From Candidatus Colwellbacteria bacterium (lineage in GTDB: Bacteria > Patescibacteriota > Minisyncoccia > UBA6257 > Colwellbacteraceae), in the NCBI GenBank assembly GCA_027310265.1, contig DAIDBC010000039.1, positions 1 through 32,646 on the forward strand: a stretch of 32,646 nucleotides of DNA, written 5' to 3'. Under the pieces are notes generated by a model. The model made no database searches and was not told where the DNA came from. It saw only the letters and a list, made by a program, of their open reading frames with translations. The translations under genes and the position numbers were made by a program. This document shows, piece after piece, positions 1 through 16,268 of this stretch (positions are counted from its first letter, which is position 1; every line of letters begins with the position of its first letter).

Positions 1-179
1 GGAAGCCGGAACTGATCCGCCAGCAGGCGGTGAATTCCGGAGGGTTCCCCGAAGTGAGCTAGGATAATCTGTCTATTCCAGAGACTCGCTGGTGAGGAGA
101 GGTTTCTGCCGGAACCAAGCTCAAAAGAGCTCCGTAGTTTCCGTCAGGCTATACGGAATCTCGACTCCTAGTCACTGGT
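1..179. other. Unassigned hairpin-rich, GC-elevated non-coding segment cut by the window edge (possibly a truncated structured RNA, or the 3' end of a + strand CDS plus spacer)
   Basis: No ORF of 60 aa or more. A nested hairpin CCGGAA(6-11)/TTCCGG(35-40) encloses CCGCC(17-21)-AGCA-GGCGG(26-30). Further stems lie at 118-122/127-131 and 132-136/152-156. The first 60 nt are about 63% G+C by my count. Plus-strand frames 2 and 3 stay open from the edge to stops at 65-67 and 60-62. Confidence 0.3.
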
Positions 180-3985: not shown

Positions 3986-4831
3986 TTAATGTCCGTCCGA
4001 CGTTGAAACAGCGAACAAACCGTCCGACGCTCTAATGTGCACCGTGCCGTTTTGGTCGGTGCGGTACACGCTCGCGCCTATTGCCGCTAACCTTTGCACG
4101 GCCGCCGGCGCGGGATGGCCATAGGTATTTTTGCCGACCTCAATGACTGCAACTCGCGGCAGGACACTTTCCAAAAACGGAGTGATCGACGAAGTCTTAG
4201 AACCGTGGTGCGAGACTTTTAAGATATCCGCATTTATCCCACCTCCAGCAACAAGGGACTGTTCCAAAGAGGCAGTAGCATCGCCGGTAAATAGCGCCTT
4301 AACCCCGCCGGAGGATAAACGCACGATCATTGAATCGTCATTTGGATTTGCGGACAACGCCGCATCCGACGGCGCAAGCACCTCCAGCCTGCTTTCTTTA
4401 TAGCGCACCGCATCTCCTTTTTTGAGAACGACCGCGCGGGTGCCGCGGTTATTTAACAGTCCGACCAGATCTTTCCAGGCGCTATCCAGAGATGACTCCC
4501 CGTTCCACACAAACAGGCCGATCTTGTAGCGCTCGAGAATCGGGATCAAGCCGCCGAAGTGATCCAGTTGAGGGTGCGAAAGCAAAACTACGTCCAAATA
4601 GCGGTCGGTGGGCGAAATAGTGTTTCCTAGCGGCGCAAGGGTAGCGCTGCTTGGTCCACCGTCGATCAAAACCTTAACCCCGCCAGGCAGGACGGCAAGT
4701 TCACTGTCCCCTTCCCCACTCTTCAAAAAGTATAGATTTAACGCCGAGTCCGGCGCACCGGCAACTACCCAATACCAGACAAAAAGATTAAGCGAGACGA
4801 GCGCCGAAAAGATTGATAATGAATATTTCAT
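3986..4831 (-). CDS. Metallo-beta-lactamase-fold protein corresponding to the C-terminal domain of ComEC/Rec2, with its own N-terminal TM helix
   Basis: The track ORF 3986..5149 is trimmed to the ATG at 4831 (MKYSLSIFSALVSLNLFVWYWVV). It contains YFLKSGEGDSELAVLPGGVKVLIDGG, LLSHPQLDHFGG (HxxxDH) and LKVSHHGS, typical of the ComEC Lactamase_B domain. The upstream 106 codons overlap comEC in another frame and are Arg/Ser/Cys-rich. Confidence 0.75.
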   Translation of the reverse strand: MKYSLSIFSALVSLNLFVWYWVVAGAPDSALNLYFLKSGEGDSELAVLPGGVKVLIDGGPSSATLAPLGNTISPTDRYLDVVLLSHPQLDHFGGLIPILERYKIGLFVWNGESSLDSAWKDLVGLLNNRGTRAVVLKKGDAVRYKESRLEVLAPSDAALSANPNDDSMIVRLSSGGVKALFTGDATASLEQSLVAGGGINADILKVSHHGSKTSSITPFLESVLPRVAVIEVGKNTYGHPAPAAVQRLAAIGASVYRTDQNGTVHIRASDGLFAVSTSDGH

Positions 4832-6119
4832 AGCCCAAAAGGATGTTAGCAATCCAACCGACCGCGAGCGACAAACTGTTTGAGATATAACCCAAAACAG
4901 CCGCCACGAAACCGAAGAACATTGTCGCCGGGATGAACTCCAGAACAAGCATATTGGATAGCGGCGCAAGTGGAGCAAAAGATCCGAACATAGCAAATGA
5001 TACTGGCAGCGTGCCGATCTGGGCGGCGGTCGTCTCGGCCAAGTTCTTGCGCCACCCCAAGGTACCCTCATTGATATCAGAACGCAGCCATTTACGAAAC
5101 AGCGGCCCCAAAATAACGATGCCCAATAACGCAGCGAATGAAAGTTCAAAACTGGCGTTAAACATTAAAAGCGCCGGGTTAAACAAAAGCATCGCGGCGG
5201 CGGTCAGGGTAATCGCATTCCTGAAACTATAGAGACGGCTCGCTCGCTCTGCGACCAATAAAACTGTTCCCATGATTGCGGCACGGACAACCGAAGCTTC
5301 CGCGCCGGTCATCAGAACAAAAATAACAATGAACACAATTGTTATCCAAAAGGCACGCCGCCTTCCCCACAGAAAAGAACATATTCCGGTAAGTACAAAA
5401 CCAATCACCGAGATATTATAACCGGATAGGGCAACGATGTGGGTCGTACCACTCCTTTTTAGCGCATTGGTGAATTCTGGGGTGAATTCCGCGCGTTCCC
5501 CGAAGATTATCCCCTTTGCAAGCGCGCTTTTATCGGCCGGCAAAATTTTATCGATATTCGCGGTCAAACTATCTTTGACTTCGAAAAGAAACGACCGAAA
5601 AGCGTTGCCGTGTCCGCTTTCCACGAACTTAGCCTCCGGGAGATACATCCGATTGGATAGACCGGCGTAAGCATTCTTTTCAACACTGCCCGTAAGTTTA
5701 AGCAGATCGCCGTACTTAAACCGCGGATACGACGGCAAATAAACCTCCACCGATCCGCTGTATGGCCTCGTCAACGAGACCGTGAGTATCTGGCCGCTCA
5801 CGCGTTCCTGTGGTTCGCCGCTAACTATACCTTCCAGAGTCACTTTTTCGCCTATCGGGACAAGCGGTTCGTGCGCCACGGCATAAAAGCTGTAGTAAAA
5901 AGCGCCGAAGGGGAGTAGCAAGGCAAGCAAAACAAAAATTTTGTTTTTGCGCACAAGATACAAGGTTACGGCAACGAGCGCCGCAGCAAGTAAGACAATA
6001 TAGCCGTTCAACCCAAGGCTTGCCGCCGCAATACCCAACATAAAAAACACCGCCGCGTAGAACGCGGCATCATAGAGATGCAACTTAGAACTCGATGCCA
6101 AGTTCTGCGATTCTGCCAT
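4788..6119 (-). CDS. comEC: ComEC/Rec2 competence channel protein, membrane part (DUF4131 + Competence domains), lacking the MBL domain
   Basis: The 443-aa polytopic membrane protein has an N-terminal OB-like region between TM helices and the Competence-domain signature region GTTHIVALSGYNISV...TGAEASVVRAAIMG. Confidence 0.85.
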   Translation of the reverse strand: MAESQNLASSSKLHLYDAAFYAAVFFMLGIAAASLGLNGYIVLLAAALVAVTLYLVRKNKIFVLLALLLPFGAFYYSFYAVAHEPLVPIGEKVTLEGIVSGEPQERVSGQILTVSLTRPYSGSVEVYLPSYPRFKYGDLLKLTGSVEKNAYAGLSNRMYLPEAKFVESGHGNAFRSFLFEVKDSLTANIDKILPADKSALAKGIIFGERAEFTPEFTNALKRSGTTHIVALSGYNISVIGFVLTGICSFLWGRRRAFWITIVFIVIFVLMTGAEASVVRAAIMGTVLLVAERASRLYSFRNAITLTAAAMLLFNPALLMFNASFELSFAALLGIVILGPLFRKWLRSDINEGTLGWRKNLAETTAAQIGTLPVSFAMFGSFAPLAPLSNMLVLEFIPATMFFGFVAAVLGYISNSLSLAVGWIANILLGYEIFIINLFGARLA

Positions 6120-6630: not shown

Positions 6631-7755
6631 TCATGAAGCCGAGACGATCACGCCGCCGCCAAGCATCTCACCTCGGTCGGAGTAGAACACTGCGGACTGG
6701 CCCGGCGCCACGAACTTCTGCAGCCTATCGAAAACAAGCTCGTTTCCCTTCAGTACTGCCCGCGCAAGCGGCTGACGGTAACGAACGCGGGCCAAAACCG
6801 GCATATCGCCACGGCTGAACTGCCGATTTTTAGGATTTATAAAGTTCAGCCCATCTAGGTTAACTTTTTGCCGGTAAAGTTTGGGGTTATCGCCGCCTTC
6901 CGCCACGGTAATCGTGTTTTTCGTCATATTCTTATCCGCAATGTAGTACGGGATTTGCGTTTTTTTACGGTAATCAGCGCCGGTGTGCCGTTGACCGATG
7001 GTATAAAATTGCGCCCCACGGTGCTCGCCGATTACCTCGCCGTTTACGGTCAAAACCGCGCCCGATTCTTCCGGAATGTATCTGGAAAGAAACTCAGCAA
7101 GCGTCACCTTGCCGACAAAACAAATTCCCTGTGAATCTTTTTTGCCTGCAGTAGGCAGATTAGCGCTTTTCGCAATCCGCCGCACTTCCTCCTTTAAGTA
7201 GCTGCCCAGAGGAAAAAGACAATGTCTTAGCTGTTCCTGCGTAAGTGTCCATAGAAAATAGGATTGGTCTTTATTCTTGTCCTCCGCTTCAAACAGAGTA
7301 AATGGGCCGTGGTACCGGCGAATGCGTACATAGTGGCCAGTTGCAACGTAATCCGCCCCCATTTTCAGCGCGCGATCCAAAAATAATCCGAATTTTATCT
7401 CGCGGTTGCACACAACGTCAGGATTCGGCGTGATGCCGTTCCGATAGCCTTCAATCATGTACTCGACCACCCGCTCACGATACTCTTTTTCCAGGTCAAA
7501 AACGTAGAAAGGGATATCTAAACATTCGGCCACTCGCCTAGCATCTTCCGCCTCGCGTACATCACAGCCCGCTTCGTTCCAGCAGCGCAGATGCACGCCC
7601 GCGACGTTATACCCCTCCTTTTTTAAGAGGTAAGCGGCGACGGACGAATCCACGCCGCCGGACAAGCCCACGAAAACTGTAGGCGTTTTAGGCTTTAGAG
7701 ACGCGCTCAACGTAGACCCCCGTCCCGGTATTAATTTTGATGATATCCCCTTCAT
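6631..7755 (-). CDS. mnmA: tRNA 2-thiouridine(34) synthase MnmA
   Basis: The PP-loop VGLSGGVDSSVAA, GICFVG and the C-terminal beta-barrel region are present. 374 aa. The first 22 codons overlap efp, so the true start may lie further in (for example GTG at V29), but no in-frame ATG is available. Confidence 0.9.
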   Translation of the reverse strand: MKGISSKLIPGRGSTLSASLKPKTPTVFVGLSGGVDSSVAAYLLKKEGYNVAGVHLRCWNEAGCDVREAEDARRVAECLDIPFYVFDLEKEYRERVVEYMIEGYRNGITPNPDVVCNREIKFGLFLDRALKMGADYVATGHYVRIRRYHGPFTLFEAEDKNKDQSYFLWTLTQEQLRHCLFPLGSYLKEEVRRIAKSANLPTAGKKDSQGICFVGKVTLAEFLSRYIPEESGAVLTVNGEVIGEHRGAQFYTIGQRHTGADYRKKTQIPYYIADKNMTKNTITVAEGGDNPKLYRQKVNLDGLNFINPKNRQFSRGDMPVLARVRYRQPLARAVLKGNELVFDRLQKFVAPGQSAVFYSDRGEMLGGGVIVSAS

Positions 7756-8257
7756 TCACAAAGAGAGGCACGGCTATCTTCGCCCCACCCTCAATCGTAA
7801 CTGTTTTGGTGCCGCCCTGCACGGTGTTACCACGTACCGCGGGCTCGGCCTCGGTGACTTTATAATCTGCCTTGATCGGGAGTTCTACCGATATAATCTC
7901 CCCATCCATCGTAACGGCGCTAACGATCATATCGGGCCGCAGATAGACCGCCGACGGGCTTACTTGTGTTCCTTTGACCGCAAAGCGTTTAGAAGGATCC
8001 TTGGGGTCGTTGAACCAACATTCGCCGCGACTGGAATAGATGAATTTTATATACTTGCGTTCAAGGTCTGCTTCTTCAATCCGGTCATTTTGGTGAAAGG
8101 TTTGCTCCTTAACCGCGCCGGTTATCAAGTTGCGCAATTTAGTGCGGCTGACCGGCTTTCTCTGTTGCATGCGCAAGAACTCATATTCCAACACGGCCCA
8201 GGGTTGTCCCTCCAGGAGTATGATATGTCCCGGTCTTAATTCGTTATAGGAGAGCAT
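7688..8257 (-). CDS. efp: Elongation factor P (atypical beta3-beta4 loop)
   Basis: 189 aa, collinear with EF-P: ...G.PWAV.E.EF....(loop)...RTKLRNL.TG...E.TF ... VPLFVNEGD.IKINT..G.YV.R. Confidence 0.9.
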   Translation of the reverse strand: MLSYNELRPGHIILLEGQPWAVLEYEFLRMQQRKPVSRTKLRNLITGAVKEQTFHQNDRIEEADLERKYIKFIYSSRGECWFNDPKDPSKRFAVKGTQVSPSAVYLRPDMIVSAVTMDGEIISVELPIKADYKVTEAEPAVRGNTVQGGTKTVTIEGGAKIAVPLFVNEGDIIKINTGTGVYVERVSKA

Positions 8258-8260
8258 ATT

Positions 8261-9739
8261 TCAGAATCTATCTTCTTCGGCGCCGGAATCCTCTTCCGGA
8301 CTCCCAGATTTATGCAACAGTCTGCGTAATTCTTCAAGATCCGCAGGTTTACGGACCTTGTGGTGTGTTTCATTGTTATCTGATTTCAAAATATCTAGCG
8401 GCTGCTCTACCCGACGTTCAGCCCGCTCGCTAACTTCTTCCCTACCGGCGCGCAGTTCTTCATCAATGCGCTTGTCCACTACTTCACGCGGAGAACCGTA
8501 GCGCTTGCGGCTCGATTCTACAATTACATCTTCAAAGGTCCGTTCCGGTAAATCGTGTGGGGGCAGGGTTTCAGCCGAGAACGGTTGCGAAGCTACTCCA
8601 TCAATAAGTAGTTTTATGTAAATGTGGTACTTAGACAGGTTCACCAGATCGCTCTCGCTGAAAGCCGGCGTAAATTCGCGCTCCAAGAACCGGGCATCGT
8701 CGGCCCCCACCCGGAAGACAACAATAGTACCAACATTTCCGAAAACAGCATCGCGAACCCGGGTAACGGATGAGGTAATGAGTTGGGCGATGTATTGGTG
8801 AGCCAAAACCAGACTTAGGCGATATTTGCGGGCTTCGGATAAAATGTTCGCGAAAGATTCGGTTGAAAAGTTCTGGAACTCATCGATATAAAGATAAAAA
8901 TCGCGCCGCTCAAGCTCCGGGGTGTCAACGCGGCTCATCGCCGCAAGCTGCATTTTAGTTACCAGCATCGCTCCTAGAAGCGCAGAATTATCTTCCCCCA
9001 CCTTGCCCTTGGAAAGATTGGCGATAAATATTTTTCCCTCATCCATGACCTTGCGTAGATCGATGGTTGAGTGCGGCTGGCCGATGATCCGCCGGATTAT
9101 TGGATTGGAAACGAATTGACCGATTTTATTCAAGATTGCCGCAGTGGCTTCAGTTTCATAACGTTGGTTATAACGGGCAAATTCATTTACCCAAAAACTC
9201 TTAACCACCGGATCGGTTAAATTATTTACAACCTCATTGCGATAGGCGCGGTCGGTCAAAAGGCGCATTACCCCCAGAAGCGTCGAGCCGGGGTATTCCA
9301 AAAGCGAAAGGAGAGAATTATTCAGGATGTACTCCATCCGCGGCGACCAGACGTCGGGCCAAATCTTTTTGAACACACCCATCAGACCCGAGGCCACTAA
9401 ATGGTGGTATTCGTCGCCCACACGCTCCAATGGGTTAAAACCAATCGGTTGTTCGATGTCCGCCGGATTGAAATAAACCACGTCTTCGATGCGTTCTTCG
9501 GGCACAAATTTAAGAATCCGTTCGGCAAACTCGCCGTGCGGGTCAATCACGCCGACGCCATGTCCGGACATAATGTCATCCACCACCATATTTTCCATCA
9601 TGGTGGTCTTGCCCGTTCCGGTTTTCCCGATCACATAAACGTGCTGGCGACGATCGCGATCTTTGATGCCGAAAGTAACCTTCCGGTTGTGGGAGGTGGT
9701 GCGCCCAATTATCGTTATACCATCGTCTTTAAACTCCAT
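8261..9739 (-). CDS. Soluble VirD4/TraD/TraG-like (type IV coupling protein-like) P-loop ATPase
   Basis: Walker A is VIGKTGTGKTT. Walker B is FYLYIDEFQNF, followed by ARKYRLSLVLAHQ, typical of the TraG/TraD C-terminal ATPase family. There is no N-terminal TM helix, and the last 70 or so aa form a highly charged acidic tail. Confidence 0.75.
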   Translation of the reverse strand: MEFKDDGITIIGRTTSHNRKVTFGIKDRDRRQHVYVIGKTGTGKTTMMENMVVDDIMSGHGVGVIDPHGEFAERILKFVPEERIEDVVYFNPADIEQPIGFNPLERVGDEYHHLVASGLMGVFKKIWPDVWSPRMEYILNNSLLSLLEYPGSTLLGVMRLLTDRAYRNEVVNNLTDPVVKSFWVNEFARYNQRYETEATAAILNKIGQFVSNPIIRRIIGQPHSTIDLRKVMDEGKIFIANLSKGKVGEDNSALLGAMLVTKMQLAAMSRVDTPELERRDFYLYIDEFQNFSTESFANILSEARKYRLSLVLAHQYIAQLITSSVTRVRDAVFGNVGTIVVFRVGADDARFLEREFTPAFSESDLVNLSKYHIYIKLLIDGVASQPFSAETLPPHDLPERTFEDVIVESSRKRYGSPREVVDKRIDEELRAGREEVSERAERRVEQPLDILKSDNNETHHKVRKPADLEELRRLLHKSGSPEEDSGAEEDRF

Positions 9740-9757
9740 ATTATTAACTATCCACTC

Positions 9758-10999
9758 TTAGTTGCTTATCACCGGCAAGTCCGGCGGTGGACCGCCTTTT
9801 CTCATACTCAAACGCGCCAGTTTTTCTGCGCCGACAGTCGAATGCGGCGGGTGGTATAGGGTCGCAAGTTCTTCGACGTTAAGTACAAACGGCTTCGATG
9901 GCATAACCCGCCCGCGATAATCCTGAAAAAGTTTTTTCTTGTTGGCCAGCTCCGTCGCATCTTTGCGAAACCTGGATTCAAGGAAAGTGAGTTTCGGGTC
10001 GTCCAGTTTAAAACTGTTCAGATGCGGAGCGCCGAACTGACGCAGCGCGCCAACAACCGTGGAGACATTGGACTTGCTAAAGGCGTCGCGCCGGTCGATA
10101 TAGAGCACGCGGATGCCGCATTCGAACGCGAACTTAGCCACCTTCCCCTCAATTGCTTTAATAATTTCGTTCTCGCCGTAGGAAAACTGCTTACCCTGCG
10201 GCTTTTCCTCTTTCTTTTCCTCCGCCCCGGACCAAACCGGCGGCTGGATCGGTGCAAGCGCCAGATTCTTCAAAAAGGGCGCAAGCTCTTTACCCAACCA
10301 TTTGAAGAACGAAAGCTTTTCCTGTTTCGGCTTGCGACCGAGTAGTTCATCTAAAACTTCCTGTACTTCTTTCTTCCAGGCATCGAATTTATCGTTACCA
10401 AGCGGGCGCAAAGTTATTTGCAGCCAGACCATTTCGTCATCTTTCAAGTTGGACATAACTTCGGCGATCGTTGCAATCGGGTCAAGATACTGTTCCTCCT
10501 CGATCCGCAAACCATCAAAAGAGGGGTAGGTACGGATGGGGTATGCGCTTTCTCTAGCCAGCATAAGTTCCGCGCCGGCCAGATCGTAAGTCTGGTCGGG
10601 CAGATCGACGCCGAAACGGTCAACGTAATCATCGGCGACGGCAACCTCGGCGTTCGGATACTGCGAGAATACCGATGCCTCAATCAAATTGCGGTATTCC
10701 TCTGGGACGCGGACAAAAAAGTGGGTGCTATGCGAGAAGCCGGCAATTTCTATCGCAAGCCAATCATCGGCACCAAGCGCATGCAGACTGGCAAAAACCT
10801 GCTCCATAGCTTTCGGCGTCTTCAAATTCTCCTTGGGTATTTTAAGTTCTAGAGTGACCCACTTTAAGTTAGCGACGTGCAGAGCAAGTTTATCTTTTTT
10901 AGCCTTGTTGCTTACAATCCTGAAGATGGCAAAGGCAATCAGTATCACCCACGCCAATCCGAGAACCAGCCACGCTATTTGAAGCAGCGTCTGCGGCAT
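9758..10999 (-). CDS. Membrane-anchored hypothetical protein (single N-terminal TM), genetic partner of the T4CP-like ATPase
   Basis: 413-aa ORF with ATG at 10999 and a TM helix at about aa 8-28 (IAWLVLGLAWVILIAFAIF). I recognise no domain. It sits 18 nt upstream of the ATPase gene and 5 nt downstream of the sigma4-HTH gene. Confidence 0.6.
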   Translation of the reverse strand: MPQTLLQIAWLVLGLAWVILIAFAIFRIVSNKAKKDKLALHVANLKWVTLELKIPKENLKTPKAMEQVFASLHALGADDWLAIEIAGFSHSTHFFVRVPEEYRNLIEASVFSQYPNAEVAVADDYVDRFGVDLPDQTYDLAGAELMLARESAYPIRTYPSFDGLRIEEEQYLDPIATIAEVMSNLKDDEMVWLQITLRPLGNDKFDAWKKEVQEVLDELLGRKPKQEKLSFFKWLGKELAPFLKNLALAPIQPPVWSGAEEKKEEKPQGKQFSYGENEIIKAIEGKVAKFAFECGIRVLYIDRRDAFSKSNVSTVVGALRQFGAPHLNSFKLDDPKLTFLESRFRKDATELANKKKLFQDYRGRVMPSKPFVLNVEELATLYHPPHSTVGAEKLARLSMRKGGPPPDLPVISN

Positions 11000-11004
11000 T
11001 TATT

Positions 11005-11850
11005 TTACTTTTTGGGACGATCTTCTTTAACGGCGTAAGTTCCCCGGCCAATCCAGACGAATCTGGGATCCTTAATAAGTTCATTGTGCACCGTCTGGTG
11101 GTGCACCGGCTTGCCGCCCAAGGCATTTACCAACTCAGCCACCTCGCGGAAGTGCAACGGTTTGTCCGATTTCACCAGCACTAAATAACTTTTGTCCCTG
11201 ACCGTCTTTGGGTTCACATGCGGCCAGTGATCGGCGCCTAAGTCGCCCAACGGTCCCACCACAAAGCGCTTCGAGATCGAAAGATAGTTCAAAAGCAGCG
11301 GCTCCGGCATATTGTACTTCTCAGACAAGGCCTCAAGGAAAAAATCAAAATCTTGGTTGTGACTCGATATGAGTGCGGCGGCGATCTTCTTAGCGGTACG
11401 ATAAGTTTCGCTATCCCCACTCCAGACATCGTGCCAGTCCTCATCGCCCCTAACCAGCTCCGGAGAATCAATTAGGTCGGCAAGAAATCTAAGAGTGTTA
11501 GTGAACTCTTTCAACGACTCCGGCCGTTCCCAAAGATGATATAAATCGTGAACCAAAAAATCGCTGCGTCGCAGATTGCCGACTTGTTTCAAATACTCTC
11601 CCAATAATTCGGCAAAATATTCCAGTCCCCGATCACGTTTTAATTCTTCCTTAGCGGCCTTTACCGCATAAGCCTCAATTTGGCGCACTCGTTCACGGGT
11701 TAGTCCGAAGGAACGTCCGAGATCCGCAAGTGTTTTAGGTTCGCCGCCACCCAGACCGTAGCGGCCCTTAATTATTTTGGCTGAACGCTGATCCAATTTC
11801 TTCAAAGCCCTGTGAACCAACTCATCAACCTTGACTGACTTTCTAGGCAT
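11005..11850 (-). CDS. Sigma-70 region-4-like HTH protein with a C-terminal HARE-HTH-like winged helix
   Basis: RYGLGGGEPKTLADLGRSFGLTRERVRQIEAYAVKAAKEEL matches sigma region 4.2. The C-terminal PLHFREVAELV....GKPV..QTVHNELIKDPRFVWIGRGTYAVK resembles the HARE-HTH / RpoE-delta N-terminal fold. The track start at 11865 is TTG. The ATG at 11850 fits the promoter geometry. Confidence 0.65.
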   Translation of the reverse strand: MPRKSVKVDELVHRALKKLDQRSAKIIKGRYGLGGGEPKTLADLGRSFGLTRERVRQIEAYAVKAAKEELKRDRGLEYFAELLGEYLKQVGNLRRSDFLVHDLYHLWERPESLKEFTNTLRFLADLIDSPELVRGDEDWHDVWSGDSETYRTAKKIAAALISSHNQDFDFFLEALSEKYNMPEPLLLNYLSISKRFVVGPLGDLGADHWPHVNPKTVRDKSYLVLVKSDKPLHFREVAELVNALGGKPVHHQTVHNELIKDPRFVWIGRGTYAVKEDRPKK

Positions 11851-11856
11851 GGCTAA

Positions 11857-11885
11857 AAAGTACAATTTTACAGCGATTATGTCAA
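11857..11885 (-). promoter_or_regulatory. Consensus-like promoter TTGACA-17-TACTTT giving a leaderless sigma4-HTH transcript
   Basis: The minus strand reads TTGACA(11885-11880), a 17-nt spacer TAATCGCTGTAAAATTG, then TACTTT(11862-11857), then TTAGCC and ATG(11850). The 7th nt after the -10 is the A of the ATG. Confidence 0.5.
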
Positions 11886-11915: not shown

Positions 11916-12821
11916 CTAGGTGCGTTTACGCTCGGAGAATTTCTGCCATACCGTTAAGAGTGGACTGGCAATAAATATGGAGGAGTAGGCACCTACGATC
12001 GTACCGACGAGGATGGTAAGCACAAAGAACTTCAAGCCCAGCGGCCCAAGGAAGTAAAGCGCCAAGAGCACCAAAACCAGGGTGAATGAGGTGCTGATTG
12101 AACGGCGTATCGTCTCGTTGATACTGCGATTTACGATCTCGCTTAAAGTCTCCTTACCGCGGTAGATTATCAAATTCTCCCGGATCCGGTCGAAAACAAC
12201 TATGGTATCGTGGACCGAGAAACCCATTACCACCAAGAGCGCCACCATAAAATTAGTGTCGGCAGCAATCCCCAAGTATTTACCCAAAACGGCGTAGAGA
12301 CCAGCGGGGATTATGACGTCGTGAGCAAGGGTGAGAAGTGTAATTATGCCATATTTCCAGGAACTGACCGGCCGCGAGACTTTACGGAAAGCGAAAGCGA
12401 CGTAAAGCGAGATACCTACCAGGACAAAGACTATTGCCATCACTGCATTTTGTCTTAACTCCTGTGAAACTGACGGGCTTACATTCCAGAAATCGACGTC
12501 TTGCACCCCGTCGCCGAAACGCTGTTTTAGTTCGCCCAAATATTGCTGACGCGACTGATCCGAAATTTCTTTGGAGGTCACGGCATAAATCTGACTTTGT
12601 GAATCGTAAGAAACATTGGAGGTCTCGACGCGTAATGTCGAGGTGAAATAATTGTTTACTGTATTGGCGTCAGTATTTGGTATCTTCAGCTGCCACAATG
12701 AACCGCTGGTAAAATCGATTCCCAGCCGGAAGCCGAAAAGCGCGGTTGCAACAATGCCTGCAACGACCAGAACGCCCGAAACCCAGAAGAATAAATTGCG
12801 GTATTTGATGAAATTAATCAT
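11916..12821 (-). CDS. secF: Protein translocase subunit SecF
   Basis: 301 aa with a 6-TM SecF topology. GIDFTSG and the conserved C-terminal SecD/SecF TM bundle (VHDTIVVFDRIREN) are present, and it lies directly downstream of secD. Confidence 0.9.
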   Translation of the reverse strand: MINFIKYRNLFFWVSGVLVVAGIVATALFGFRLGIDFTSGSLWQLKIPNTDANTVNNYFTSTLRVETSNVSYDSQSQIYAVTSKEISDQSRQQYLGELKQRFGDGVQDVDFWNVSPSVSQELRQNAVMAIVFVLVGISLYVAFAFRKVSRPVSSWKYGIITLLTLAHDVIIPAGLYAVLGKYLGIAADTNFMVALLVVMGFSVHDTIVVFDRIRENLIIYRGKETLSEIVNRSINETIRRSISTSFTLVLVLLALYFLGPLGLKFFVLTILVGTIVGAYSSIFIASPLLTVWQKFSERKRT

Positions 12822-12822
12822 T

Positions 12823-14082
12823 TTATTTCTTGAGAAAAACCTCCAACATTGTGCGGGTGACGAAAATAGCCGAAAACATGCTAACTAATACACCCAAACC
12901 CAGGGTGAGTGCGAAACCTCTCACAAAATCCGAGGTCAGGAAATAAAGTATCGCCGAGGTGATGATTGTGCTCGTGTTCGAATCGCGGATCGAGGGCCAG
13001 GCTCGCCGAAAACCCTCTTCGATTGCGGCATGCCAGCCCAGACCCTTGCGCACTTCTTCTTTAGAACGCTCGAAAATCAAGATGTTGGCGTCGACTGCCA
13101 TTCCGATCGAGAGGATAAAACCGGCAATACCGGAAAGGGTAAGGGTAAATCCTCCGGGCACGGCCATCTTGAATATTCCCAGTGAAAGGATGGTGTAGAT
13201 GATGAGTGCAAGCGACGCAAAAATACCCAGCGTGCCGTAAGAAATCAACATAAAAAGTATCACTAACGCGGTTCCTATCGCTCCGGCGACGAGAATCTTA
13301 TGCAGGGCATCTGTCGCTGCCGAAGCAGAAACGGTCCGCTGATTGATGAGTTTAATCGGTGCGGCAAGCGCCCCGGCGTTGAAACGATCGACTAGTTGCT
13401 TGGCTACATTCGCAGTAATGCCGCTTCCGGAGATCTGCGCTTTGCCGTTCGGAATCACCTCGTTCACCCGCGGGCAGGAGCCATTTGGATCGTCCGGGAA
13501 AATAAAATTATTGTCCACGAAGATACAGATTGGTTTACCGACATTCCGGCTGGTCAGATCTTCAAAGATTTTTGCGCCCTCATCATTCAAAGTGAAAGTG
13601 AAAAGCGGTTTGCCTAGCTGGTCAAAACCAAGGGCGGCATTGGTAACATAGCGGCCGGTAAGCGGAGTGGGAATAAAACTCGCGTTTTGGCCGCTTTGCT
13701 GCACCTCACGGAAATCAAGAATCGGCAGCGCGCCGATCTGACGCACCGCATCGCCCAAATCTTTCACGCCCGCCAGCTCAACAACCAATTGATAACTGTC
13801 GCCCTTTTGGGCGATGTTTACCCGCGGCTCGGAAACGCCGTAAAGATTTACCCTTTTCCCGATTACGTCTTTCAGGCCGGCGACGACCCCTGTGTAATCT
13901 TTAGAATTCACGCCGGACAAATCAACTTGATAGACCAGAGCGCTCCCGCCAACGATGTCCAGACCCATCCTCCATGGGCTGTACTTCGCACCCAGTTTCA
14001 CCGGATAGACAAAAGCGGCCGTAACCGCGGTTACAACCAAAATCAGTATGAAAATCGATAAATTAACTTTCCAACTTTTCAT
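12823..14082 (-). CDS. secD: Protein translocase subunit SecD
   Basis: GLDIVGGSALVYQVD, a periplasmic domain and the C-terminal TM bundle with VDANILIFERSKEE are present. The track start (GTG at 14121) overlaps tRNA-Lys, so I trimmed to the ATG at 14082 (MKSWKVNLSIFILIL). Confidence 0.9.
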   Translation of the reverse strand: MKSWKVNLSIFILILVVTAVTAAFVYPVKLGAKYSPWRMGLDIVGGSALVYQVDLSGVNSKDYTGVVAGLKDVIGKRVNLYGVSEPRVNIAQKGDSYQLVVELAGVKDLGDAVRQIGALPILDFREVQQSGQNASFIPTPLTGRYVTNAALGFDQLGKPLFTFTLNDEGAKIFEDLTSRNVGKPICIFVDNNFIFPDDPNGSCPRVNEVIPNGKAQISGSGITANVAKQLVDRFNAGALAAPIKLINQRTVSASAATDALHKILVAGAIGTALVILFMLISYGTLGIFASLALIIYTILSLGIFKMAVPGGFTLTLSGIAGFILSIGMAVDANILIFERSKEEVRKGLGWHAAIEEGFRRAWPSIRDSNTSTIITSAILYFLTSDFVRGFALTLGLGVLVSMFSAIFVTRTMLEVFLKK

Positions 14083-14112
14083 CAATCGACTGTAAACACT
14101 CAATGCCCAGTG

Positions 14113-14185
14113 TGCCCCCACCAGGATTCGAACCTGGGACCATCTCCTTAAAAGGGAGCTGCTCTACCAGCTGAGCTATAGGGGC
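14113..14185 (-). tRNA. tRNA-Lys (anticodon TTT)
   Basis: GCCCCTATAGCTCAGCTGGTAGAGCAGCTCCCTTTTAAGGAGATGGTCCCAGGTTCGAATCCTGGTGGGGGCA is a 73-nt cloverleaf with anticodon loop CTTTTAA and T loop TTCGAAT. CCA is not encoded. Confidence 0.9.
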
Positions 14186-15314: not shown

Positions 15315-16268
15315 TCACGATAGCAGCACTATCTCGCGGGATCGCGATTCAAGCTGCACAACCGCGAAACCAACCGCGATCAAAATTTCGAACAAAACAA
15401 ACGCTACAACAAGAAGCGGGTAAGATATGATCGCCGCAGCAAAACGGATTGTAGCCCAGAGCAGCAAAAATACAACCGCGTAGATCAAAAGTTCCGTCGG
15501 CAAGCCCATCGTCCCCACTTTTTTGGCGAATAGGTCAGTTACGTTCGCCGAAATGGTCGCATCCAGATTAATCTCCACGCCCAACGAAGCCTTAAGCTGC
15601 GCTGATGCGGCGTTAACGGCGTCATTCAAAACTTTGTTGGCGGTAGCAGGCGGGAGTTTATCGATGGCCGGCTGAGTGCGGCGTGCAATCTGAGTCAGGA
15701 CACCGCGGACACTCATATCGGGGGTGTAATCCGGCGAGTAATATTTCATAACTGGAGTAATAACCGGATCAAGCAGCGTTTTCACAACGCTGTTGTAAGA
15801 GAATGCACCATTGCTTACGGCGCCAAGTATGGCCATTCCGAGCAATAATCCGGTCGCCCCGCCCGCGAGCGCCTTTCTCGCCACCCGTGAAAAAGGGACG
15901 CGCAGCGTATTTTCCAGCTCCCTCCGGCCAGCGAGAGCTCCGCCCGCTAGGCAAACCAAAATCGCCACTGCGGAGATCGCCAGATAGTTAAACGAAATAT
16001 GGTAGTAAGGGACAAGTAAAACTACTGTTTCCAAAAGGATAGTTAAAGCAAGATAGCCGAATTCTTTCAAGAAGAACACTTGTAACGCGAATAAACTTAA
16101 GAATAAAACAGCAAGGATTCCTCCCCAAAGTAGATTGCCGTTTATAAAAAAGAAGCTGGCGCCGAAAGCCGCGAGAACCGGAACTACCACCGTCGCCCAA
16201 ACTTTCCAGACCGAACGATTAACGTCAGCCACCTCAGGACCCTTCGTGATGAGCGAATCTTCGGGCAT
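15315..16268 (-). CDS. Polytopic membrane protein of unknown function inserted between dnaK and dnaJ
   Basis: 317-aa ORF with ATG at 16268. It has about 4-5 N-terminal TM helices, a soluble segment of about 100 aa, and 2 C-terminal TM helices. I recognise no motif. Gaps to its neighbours are 14 nt and 12 nt. Confidence 0.6.
   Translation of the reverse strand: MPEDSLITKGPEVADVNRSVWKVWATVVVPVLAAFGASFFFINGNLLWGGILAVLFLSLFALQVFFLKEFGYLALTILLETVVLLVPYYHISFNYLAISAVAILVCLAGGALAGRRELENTLRVPFSRVARKALAGGATGLLLGMAILGAVSNGAFSYNSVVKTLLDPVITPVMKYYSPDYTPDMSVRGVLTQIARRTQPAIDKLPPATANKVLNDAVNAASAQLKASLGVEINLDATISANVTDLFAKKVGTMGLPTELLIYAVVFLLLWATIRFAAAIISYPLLVVAFVLFEILIAVGFAVVQLESRSREIVLLS

Follow-up and report, generated by a model that had tools for sequence, protein, structure and literature searches.

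The DNA analysed here, referred to as the window, is the whole 32,646-nucleotide (nt) stretch of contig DAIDBC010000039.1 from Candidatus Colwellbacteria bacterium (Patescibacteriota; assembly GCA_027310265.1). On its minus strand lie three co-oriented open reading frames (ORFs), genes A, B and C, which span positions 8261-11865 when an alternative TTG start at 11865 is counted. The encoded proteins are, very probably, a protein built from sigma region 4 and winged helices (A), a membrane-anchored DUF8128 protein with a VirB4-like predicted fold (B), and an ATPase of the type IV coupling protein (T4CP) kind that has no transmembrane domain (TMD) of its own (C). Profile comparisons present B and C as the two halves of what is a single protein in other lineages, in which B would be the N-terminal half and C the ATPase half of a "long" T4CP, with A as the DNA-binding partner. 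The features of the locus are the following:

11880-11885, minus strand: -35 box TTGACA, perfect, read in the sequence and in the comparative promoter pattern.
11857-11862, minus strand: -10 box TACTTT, matching TATAAT at three of six positions, with the TAnnnT form kept, 6 nt 5' of the ATG.
11005-11850, minus strand: gene A, 281 amino acids (aa); Sigma70_r4 plus tandem winged helices, the last HARE-HTH-like (from Pfam, NCBIfam, an AlphaFold model and Foldseek).
9758-10999, minus strand: gene B, 413 aa; DUF8128 (PF26449), a membrane helix and a cytoplasmic domain of VirB4-like predicted fold (from Pfam annotation, a model and fusion profiles).
8261-9739, minus strand: gene C, 492 aa; T4CP-type (VirD4/TrwB/TraD-like) ATPase without a TMD (from Pfam, NCBIfam and hydropathy).

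Genes A and B are separated by 5 nt and genes B and C by 18 nt. The start of A was placed at ATG 11850, in agreement with the public gene call and with the N-termini of homologues; the alternative TTG 11865 falls within the promoter.

Gene C contains both Walker motifs and a charged C-terminal tail, and its residues 303-315 read ARKYRLSLVLAHQ. The annotated segments are:

9605-9628, minus strand: Walker A motif GKTGTGKT, C residues 38-45.
8867-8884, minus strand: Walker B region DEFQNF, C residues 286-291.
8264-8467, minus strand: charged C-terminal tail, residues 425-492 (68 aa), with 20 Asp/Glu, 13 Lys/Arg, a net charge of -7 and an isoelectric point of 4.9.
8303-8350, minus strand: short tail motif KPADLEELRRLLHKSG, C residues 464-479.

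Four Pfam models match C above their gathering thresholds, namely TrwB_AAD_bind (50.6 bits, cut-off 20.5), T4SS-DNA_transf (35.5, cut-off 20.1), TraG-D_C (29.3, cut-off 22) and DUF87 (37.3, cut-off 23.2), whereas the best NCBIfam matches, to VirD4-like and TraD models, all lie far under the equivalog cut-offs (for conju_CD1115, 59 against 250), indicating that C is a T4CP at the family level and belongs to no named subtype. The TrwB_AAD_bind alignment covers residues 26-345 of C and profile positions 10-311 of 387, and TrwB is the only solved structure related to C by sequence (E = 3e-5). No hydrophobic segment is found in C, whose best 19-residue Kyte-Doolittle window reaches 1.19; lacking an N-terminal TMD, it belongs to a recognised TMD-less subfamily of T4CPs, and the membrane helix of the trio is on B. 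The first-pass annotation of this DNA had described three ORFs and, for the ATPase, these motifs and the lack of membrane helices, and the description holds. It had also described an acidic tail of about 70 aa; the length and net charge agree with this, but the 13 basic residues make the tail charged rather than purely acidic. Although the tail is variable among homologues, the short motif, with the family pattern P-x-[DN]-x-x-x-L-[RK]-x-x-L-x-K-S, is present in most of 60 homologue C-termini compared and, judged by this pattern, can be regarded as a candidate docking helix for a partner.

In a tblastn search of plasmids, C matched 718 records, including 375 from Bacillus and 123 from Streptomyces as well as records from haloarchaea and Sulfolobus, and it is nearest to the C-terminal halves of long plasmid and phage T4CPs. 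One of the Streptomyces matches falls in a record that carries no annotation at that place. The closest plasmid relative of C is a 395-aa gene of Sulfitobacter mediterraneus (L084:6980-8167), which shares 42% identity with C and reaches 391 bits with its profile. It is a stand-alone gene flanked by transposases, neither B nor A is nearby, and it was set aside as uninformative; in this alphaproteobacterium it may represent the transfer of an ATPase of patescibacterial type.

Gene B had been described at first as a protein without a recognisable domain, a view that no longer stands. PF26449/DUF8128 is recorded in precomputed Pfam annotation for the identical protein and for all 120 homologues listed; the local Pfam copy, which does not include the DUF8128 model, gave no match. 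The family comprises 3,656 representatives at the 50% clustering level, of which the best 150 were inspected in the B-family profile search, and a literature search for PF26449/DUF8128 returned no paper. B has one membrane helix:

10919-10987, minus strand: transmembrane helix of B, residues ~5-27, Kyte-Doolittle 2.75, the only one in the protein.

A basic stretch, SNKAKKDK, directly follows this helix, suggesting by the positive-inside rule that the bulk of B lies in the cytoplasm. An AlphaFold model of B computed from 39 homologues (pLDDT 83.7, pTM 0.78) consists of a long N-terminal helix (residues 2-44) and a two-lobed alpha/beta domain. Among PDB structures, the best 14 Foldseek matches of this model are all TrwK/VirB4 of the R388 type IV secretion system (T4SS), with E values of 2e-6 to 2e-4 and a probability of 1.0. 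Because B has no P-loop and occurs fused to C-like ATPases, the N-terminal domain of VirB4 would be its natural counterpart. Among viral predicted structures, the model of B matches phage G gp156 (825 aa; E = 1.2e-17) and phage JL gp150 (913 aa; 2e-16), followed by phage G gp155 ("VirB-like") and a protein described as a "component of type IV transporter system".

When plasmids were searched with B by tblastn, few and weak matches were obtained, located inside genes annotated as "DUF87 domain-containing". The B and C profiles match consecutive, collinear segments of single proteins from plasmids and phages:

Bacillus subtilis plasmid NRS6116_2 (KJP60_RS23015), 913 aa: B profile 52 bits (residues 56-312), C profile 151 bits (residues 323-829).
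Bacillus methanolicus plasmid pBM69 (BMMGA3_RS16220), 833 aa: B profile 67 bits, C profile 164 bits.
Bacillus phage G gp156, 825 aa: B profile 59 bits (residues 46-318), C profile 179 bits (residues 380-813).
Phage JL gp150, 913 aa: B profile 20 bits (weaker), C profile 126 bits.
Embleya plasmid (OG928_RS01290), 812 aa: B profile 16 bits (weaker), C profile 240 bits.
Haladaptatus plasmid, 1193 aa: B profile 14 bits (weaker), C profile 155 bits.

As controls, the canonical T4CP TrsK of pGO1 and three VirB4 proteins scored at most 19 bits with the C profile and gave no score with the B profile. The collinear fusions indicate that B-C belongs, in split form, to an uncharacterised clade of "long" T4CPs present in monoderm, archaeal and phage elements, for which NCBIfam has no naming model. 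They also provide the strongest support for the earlier proposal that the ATPase owes its membrane anchor to the 413-aa protein in trans, an arrangement that now appears strongly backed. In four of the six fusion loci (both Bacillus plasmids, Embleya and phage JL), a gene annotated as "replication-relaxation family" or "replication initiation by nicking" lies directly 3' of the fusion, and this pairing with nicking proteins points to a DNA substrate; no annotated nickase adjoins the fusion at the Haladaptatus and phage G loci. The three plasmid loci of that set (both Bacillus and Embleya) also hold a separate VirB4-like ATPase together with PrgI or TcpD/TcpE-like genes. A comparison of A with the "replication-relaxation" proteins that follow the fusions found no relationship.

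Several further observations concern these elements. On a Pontibacillus megaplasmid, B is represented by a gene of its own (79 bits) with a pseudogenised C after it, and the sigma-like gene nearby was rejected as a homologue of A, being an ECF-type sigma factor with regions 2 and 4_2. In phage G, the fusion gp156 is annotated as "MsbA-like" and adjoins the VirB-like gp155 (gp155-gp156, L094:1154-5296), and in phage JL the fusion gp150, which wrongly bears the annotation "lipid A export ... Msb", adjoins the "replication initiation by nicking" protein gp149 (gp150-gp149, L095:2705-6272). The two loci represent a conjugation-like coupling module carried within the genomes of large Bacillus phages.

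Gene A consists of a sigma region 4 domain followed by winged helices:

11635-11829, minus strand: sigma region 4 domain of A, residues ~8-72, with the helix T51-R-E-R-V-R-Q-I58 invariant.
11023-11205, minus strand: C-terminal winged helix of A, residues ~216-276, HARE-HTH-like.

The first domain matches Pfam Sigma70_r4 (1.9e-13) and, among PDB sequences, region 4 of RpoD/SigA (3e-11). In the AlphaFold model of A (pLDDT 94.3), it superposes on SigA region 4 with a root-mean-square deviation of 1.1-1.8 Å and 36-46% identity by Foldseek, and tandem winged helices follow. The sequence TRERVRQIE is invariant in an alignment of 50 A proteins, and we take it to be the helix of sigma-70 region 4.2 that recognises the -35 element (TTGACA) in primary sigma factors. 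No Sigma70_r2 match was found in A, whose residues 73-281 form winged helices in the model, and the lack of region 2 indicates that A is not a sigma factor. The C-terminal domain is modelled as helix-helix-helix-strand-strand; its match to HARE-HTH (PF05066), at 20.8 bits (E = 5e-4), stays under the cut-off of 25.9, although PF05066 is recorded in precomputed data for about half of the listed A homologues. Thus, of the family assignments for which profile searches had been advised, T4CP for C and Sigma70_r4 for A were borne out, but HARE-HTH was not reached at threshold. Both ends of A are basic (isoelectric points 10.4 and 9.9) and its middle is acidic. Its best fold matches are chimeras of sigma region 4 with the beta-flap tip (122 aligned columns), and in the model the next helix of A itself might, tentatively, occupy the flap-tip site. 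A literature search for HARE-HTH combined with sigma domains found nothing relevant.

An A-like module also occurs outside Patescibacteria. Plasmid pTHAF33_d of Ruegeria sp. THAF33 (L089:6570-9650) encodes a 1026-aa "sigma factor-like HTH" protein that contains the full module, from sigma region 4 through HARE-HTH (97% coverage, 26% identity), and sits between dndBCDE and phosphorothioation-dependent restriction genes. In NCBIfam and PADLOC, moreover, the sigma region 4 of A matches MzaA. These matches indicate that the module serves elsewhere as a DNA reader outside RNA polymerase, and they suggest that in defence systems it reads DNA or its modification state. Taken with the weak PADLOC matches of C to mad8 (5e-15) and DndH (7e-8), they also raise the idea that the trio is itself an anti-phage or DNA-surveillance system, in which a modification-sensing HTH protein is combined with a translocase motor. 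This is very improbable, since defence systems are patchy, fast-evolving and located in islands, whereas the trio is found almost throughout its class, at a fixed place between secDF and efp, and C is more conserved than EF-P. In addition, the window holds no nuclease or methyltransferase partner, and the PADLOC matches do not extend beyond the ATPase and sigma region 4 modules that are shared.

The promoter of A reads TTGACA (11885-11880), 17 nt, TACTTT (11862-11857), 6 nt and ATG. The first-pass annotation had called it near-consensus, which is accurate for the -35 box and overstated for the -10 box, whose three matches also explain why a consensus scan did not pick the promoter up. Upstream of A, the pattern TTGACN-16..18-TAnnnT is found in 54 of 72 related loci, compared with 2.2% of control windows, and in about 14 related loci, the closest relatives included, the promoter lies at the same leaderless distance between -35 box and start. 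Five minus-strand TTGACA sites occur in the window (8923, 11880, 18682, 27536 and 28775), and four of them stand 5' of operon starts, those of A, grpE, mraZ and rplJ. A hexamer of the TAnnnT type, or a similar one rich in A/T, follows each of these four after 17-18 nt. The promoter of A is therefore credible despite its poor -10 box. The spacing of 6 nt from the -10 box to the ATG implies, as read from the sequence, a leaderless or nearly leaderless A mRNA. More generally, TTGACA followed after 17 or 18 nt by an A/T-rich hexamer offers a usable local promoter signature in the window.

Transcription is probably not confined to the trio, which is flanked by the following genes:

11916-14121, minus strand: secD (12823-14121) and secF (11916-12821), the upstream flank, conserved neighbours outside the module.
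7688-8257, minus strand: efp, the downstream flank, 3 nt after the stop codon of C and probably co-transcribed here.

No terminator-like site was predicted in the window between secF and A or between C and efp, which, given the 3-nt gap, suggests that the transcript continues past the trio; by this reading of the sequence, read-through is likely both into and out of it. The description of the locus as a three-gene module is thus right about the order A-B-C, but the trio is not a closed unit, as efp follows so closely.

Each of the three genes has many homologues in metagenome bins of Patescibacteria. Synteny was compared in 80 loci, one genome per species, nearly all from Patescibacteria and mostly from Parcubacteria/Paceibacteria, with one labelled Candidatus Binatia. 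The order A-B-C on one strand is found in essentially all of them, so that the expectation that the three genes travel together in relatives was borne out. No C was called in 12 loci: in seven of these the contig ends where C begins, two (L060 and L080) have a contig end just before or after B, and three (L014, L037 and L050) keep A and B together with C elsewhere. In two of the latter, which represent one lineage (L014:1263-9208 and L037:8885-14523), nusA, tig, clpP and infB follow A-B in place of C, indicating that the ATPase gene can be relocated while the A-B pair persists. One further locus (L041:3576-6999) has two C-like ATPase genes in tandem after B, in keeping with the roughly two T4CP homologues per genome that published counts give for Patescibacteria. 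A search from an A protein of 44% identity recovered the order dnaK, an unknown gene, dnaJ, secD, secF, A, B, C, efp, mnmA, cob and comEC, with overlapping stops and starts. The recurrent neighbours across the 80 loci are SecD/F (59, upstream), EF-P (33), MnmA (22) and ComEC (16), along with SecA, DnaJ and tRNA synthetases, and efp of relatives lies on either strand.

The syntenic position is kept across divergent genomes, down to an A of only 34% identity. Compared with their counterparts in these loci, the window proteins show median identities of 61-64% (C), 45-54% (SecD, SecF, EF-P, MnmA and DnaJ) and 75% (DnaK), suggesting that the ATPase is under stronger constraint than those of its core neighbours that fall in the lower range. 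These data bear on the possibility that the trio is what is left of an integrated conjugative element after the loss of its relaxase and channel genes, an origin brought to mind by the closest relatives of B-C outside Patescibacteria, which are T4CPs of conjugative plasmids and phages. Such an origin can hardly be credited, given the synteny across divergent genomes, the three intact reading frames and a purifying selection stronger than that on neighbouring housekeeping genes. Consistent with this, no relaxase, VirB4, integrase or pilin gene was found among the ORFs of the window, no repeats bracket the trio within it, and its GC content is uniform, with no shift at the trio. Nor is C associated with a relaxase or a T4SS channel gene, in the window or among the recurrent neighbour families of the 80 loci, which include no T4SS gene of any kind. 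The first-pass annotation had likewise held that the locus is not a decayed conjugative element, that its flanks are housekeeping genes and that mobile-element genes and bracketing repeats are missing, all of which agrees with these results.

The remaining ORFs of the window are all housekeeping genes. They encode an M50 peptidase, YfbR, NDK, an aminoacyl-tRNA synthetase, ComEC, CobA, MnmA, EF-P, SecDF, DnaJ/DnaK/GrpE, RecR, DnaB, CysRS, a Mur ligase, a PBP, MraW/MraZ, L10, PCMT, EF-Ts, S2 and TrmD, and tRNAs are also present. ComEC, located 2.1 kb downstream of the trio, consists of two minus-strand ORFs in the region 3986-6119, one with DUF4131 and Competence domains (4788-6119) and one with a metallo-beta-lactamase domain (3986-5149), which overlap by 362 nt on paper. 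Because the relatives also show two separate ORF families (449 aa in 16 loci and 285 aa in 13 loci), the split may be a lineage trait rather than a frameshift. A 317-aa ORF without a Pfam match (15315-16268, minus strand) lies between dnaJ and dnaK, and a 363-aa gene, also without a Pfam match, occupies the equivalent position in two other loci (L091 and L092), so the ORF may belong to the chaperone cluster as a conserved but uncharacterised gene. The longest MnmA ORF (6631-7755) overlaps efp by 68 nt; this is an artefact of taking the longest ORF, as the public call on the identical contig (L090) starts MnmA later, at 346 aa.

Collectively, the trio combines conserved synteny, strong purifying selection, a chromosomal housekeeping context and a conserved promoter. 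The explanation put forward here is that it constitutes a vertically inherited core-genome operon of Patescibacteria that encodes a long T4CP split in two genes and works by a DNA-handling mechanism; seen in this way, the trio looks like a piece of conjugation machinery domesticated for a core role in the cell. We regard the chances of this explanation as a whole as evenly balanced, and the DNA-handling mechanism taken by itself as tentative, somewhat short of an even chance. Under this mechanism, B would hold C at the inner face of the membrane and perhaps aid its oligomerisation. A would bind double-stranded DNA at TTGACA-like sites, including its own promoter, and would act both as an autoregulator, probably repressing that promoter, and as an adaptor that passes a nucleic-acid substrate to the motor, comparable to TrwA and TraM. 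Docking might take place through the conserved helix in the charged tail of C, and ATP hydrolysis by a ring of C would move the substrate towards a channel whose genes lie elsewhere, be it that of the patescibacterial T4SS or ComEC. Thus we infer the B-C and A-C contacts, a hexameric C, a DNA substrate, the direction of transport and the channel. A more specific version, in which A captures double-stranded DNA and the B-C ring powers relaxase-independent import or exchange through the T4SS/pilus or ComEC as a bacterial counterpart of the archaeal Ced system, is rather unlikely; if it were true, the trio would have a share in the acquisition or exchange of DNA by these nucleotide-auxotrophic epibionts.

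The published record on Patescibacteria bears directly on this explanation. According to Quinonero-Coronel et al. 2025 (PMC12102498), 5,713 homologues of a VirD4-like T4CP occur in 2,918 of 3,035 genomes, VirB4 occurs in 2,417, and only 148 of the T4CP homologues lie near virB4. As described in the same paper, most Patescibacteria have a chromosomal MPF-FATA-type T4SS without a relaxase, for which the authors suggest co-option beyond conjugation; in Ca. Southlakia the T4SS genes are essential whereas the T4CP homologue is non-essential, and an exaptation of the latter "cannot be ruled out". This widespread, chromosomal orphan T4CP, rarely near virB4, is very probably of the same ATPase family as C. 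The consulted part of PMC12102498 makes no mention of a missing TMD, of DUF8128 or sigma region 4/HARE-HTH partners, of the secDF-efp context or of the fusions. The earlier statement that no function is established for such a module is accordingly fair for the trio, but it passed over the orphan patescibacterial T4CP (PMC12102498) and the TMD-less T4CPs (PMC7434980), both of which had been published.

Another interpretation of B-C is that it is the missing coupling ATPase of the patescibacterial T4SS (encoded near oriC), recruiting protein effectors or tuning pili, with A as a regulator only. The relaxase-free chromosomal T4SS of most Patescibacteria (PMC12102498) speaks for it. T4CPs of effector systems recruit proteins through their C-terminal tails, and the tail of C has a conserved motif; a predicted fold like that of VirB4 would make B suitable for docking to components of the VirB3, VirB6 or VirB8 kind; and the perfect -35 box of the operon is an obvious target for the sigma region 4 helix of A. 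Nevertheless, the T4CP is found in more genomes than VirB4 and seldom near virB4, and its homologue is dispensable in Ca. Southlakia, unlike the T4SS genes. Moreover, the conservation of A is unusually high and its three domains go beyond what a plain repressor would require, and the pairing of the fused relatives with nicking proteins favours DNA over protein as the substrate. We therefore consider this interpretation unlikely, although it is the most probable of the alternatives.

The predicted membrane tether could also serve a motor that acts on the chromosome itself. In this alternative, B-C is a chromosome pump in the manner of FtsK, SpoIIIE, SftA or Streptomyces TraB that would clear or segregate double-stranded DNA at division, with A providing sequence-directed loading. 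T4CPs and FtsK form one ATPase superfamily, weak FtsK_SpoIIIE matches were obtained for C and its fused relatives, and C shows core-gene-like conservation. FtsK and TraB read DNA motifs through winged-helix domains, a type of domain also present in A. Since E. coli does not require its FtsK motor, even the dispensability seen by transposon sequencing would fit. However, the FtsK Pfam match of C reaches 15 bits, far below the approximately 50 bits of the T4CP models, and TTGACA is neither enriched nor skewed beyond promoter sites. The specific proposal that B-C replaces a missing FtsK was weakened by the annotated ftsK of the saccharibacterium TM7x, and the chromosome pump, which is improbable overall, is kept as a minor alternative. 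TTGACA was likewise examined as an enriched or polar signal for uptake or loading and rejected: the window has 7 sites against about 12 expected, so that the hexamer is rarer than expected, and the minus-strand sites are explained by promoters.

Several results weigh against the explanation of the trio as a DNA-handling split T4CP. Against VirB4, the model of B reaches query-normalised TM-scores of 0.35-0.41, and the Foldseek output does not show where on VirB4 the alignment falls; in hhalign comparisons, the B profile gave probabilities below 1% against TrsD and TrsE (VirB4) of pGO1, and it found nothing among PDB sequences. Given these negative sequence and profile tests, the relation between B and VirB4 is one of predicted fold. 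TTGACA is not enriched in the window, and A may be nothing more than the repressor of its operon. Neither in the window nor among the recurrent neighbour families is the trio accompanied by a relaxase, an oriT-like repeat or a T4SS channel gene, so that what is proposed above about substrate and channel is guesswork, and the synteny with secDF and comEC may merely reflect conserved gene order within the class. The possible tie to DNA uptake suggested in the first-pass annotation draws on this gene order shared within one class. The homologue count of PMC12102498, which averages about two per genome, may include T4CPs that are not orthologous to C. Finally, comEC disruption had no effect on the viability of a saccharibacterium, and with comEC dispensable, a role in DNA uptake would not explain the strong conservation of the trio through nucleotide supply alone.

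Patescibacteria are a huge and mostly uncultured group that depends on hosts for nucleotides and possesses T4SSs without relaxases, and a VirD4-like ATPase is even more widespread among them. The present analysis provides this orphan ATPase with an architecture (a split long T4CP), two obligate-looking partners and an evolutionary source in the fused T4CPs of Firmicute, actinobacterial and haloarchaeal plasmids and of Bacillus phages, most of them paired with a nickase-like gene. In addition, DUF8128 gains a structural and functional context, and an uncharacterised T4CP clade on Bacillus plasmids and in jumbo phages is flagged. Genetically tractable Saccharibacteria make it possible to ask whether the trio serves the uptake or exchange of DNA, the selection of T4SS substrates or the handling of the chromosome.

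Compared with VirB4 (TrwK), the fusions share the arrangement of a B-like domain N-terminal to a P-loop ATPase domain, but B has no sequence-level similarity to VirB4, C scores as a T4CP, and the conjugation loci that hold fusions have a separate VirB4. The long fused T4CP-like ATPases have in common with B-C the order of a B-like N-terminal domain and a C-like ATPase, by profile and predicted fold; they differ in being single polypeptides of 812-1193 aa on mobile elements, with no A-like neighbour, and none has been functionally characterised. TrwA of R388 and TraM of F are small ribbon-helix-helix proteins encoded upstream of the T4CP that bind oriT beside the relaxase, autoregulate their operon and dock to TrwB or TraD, TraM doing so on the acidic C-terminal tail of TraD. 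A and C show an analogous gene order and a charged tail with a conserved motif, so the likeness to these pairs would be functional, whereas A is made of sigma region 4 and winged helices and the trio has no oriT or relaxase.

A chromosomal derivative of conjugation ATPases that works without a relaxase is also known from the crenarchaeal Ced system (CedD and CedB; PMC11823120, bioRxiv 10.1101/2024.09.27.615246), which has been domesticated for DNA import and whose VirD4-like CedD is chromosomally encoded, needs no relaxase and is essential for import (PMC11823120). The match of C to the NCBIfam CedD model is weak (34 bits against a cut-off of 600) and limited to the P-loop region, and Ced differs from the trio in that the multi-pass CedA and pilins are encoded alongside and DUF8128 or sigma region 4 partners do not occur. 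Closer in layout are the TMD-less T4CPs that depend on adjacent membrane proteins, a recognised subfamily (PMC7434980) exemplified by pIP501 TraJ with TraI and R27 TraG with TraJ, in which, as in the trio, the T4CP is encoded beside its presumed membrane anchor. The known partners of that subfamily are small (about 200 aa in R27, with up to five helices) and belong to conjugative plasmids with relaxases, whereas B has 413 aa, a single helix and a large cytoplasmic domain of VirB4-like predicted fold, and is encoded on a chromosome without a relaxase and together with a third, DNA-binding gene. Orphan T4CPs of Patescibacteria and TMD-less T4CPs with membrane partners were thus already known, whereas the split architecture, the fold of B and the partner protein A appear to be described here for the first time.

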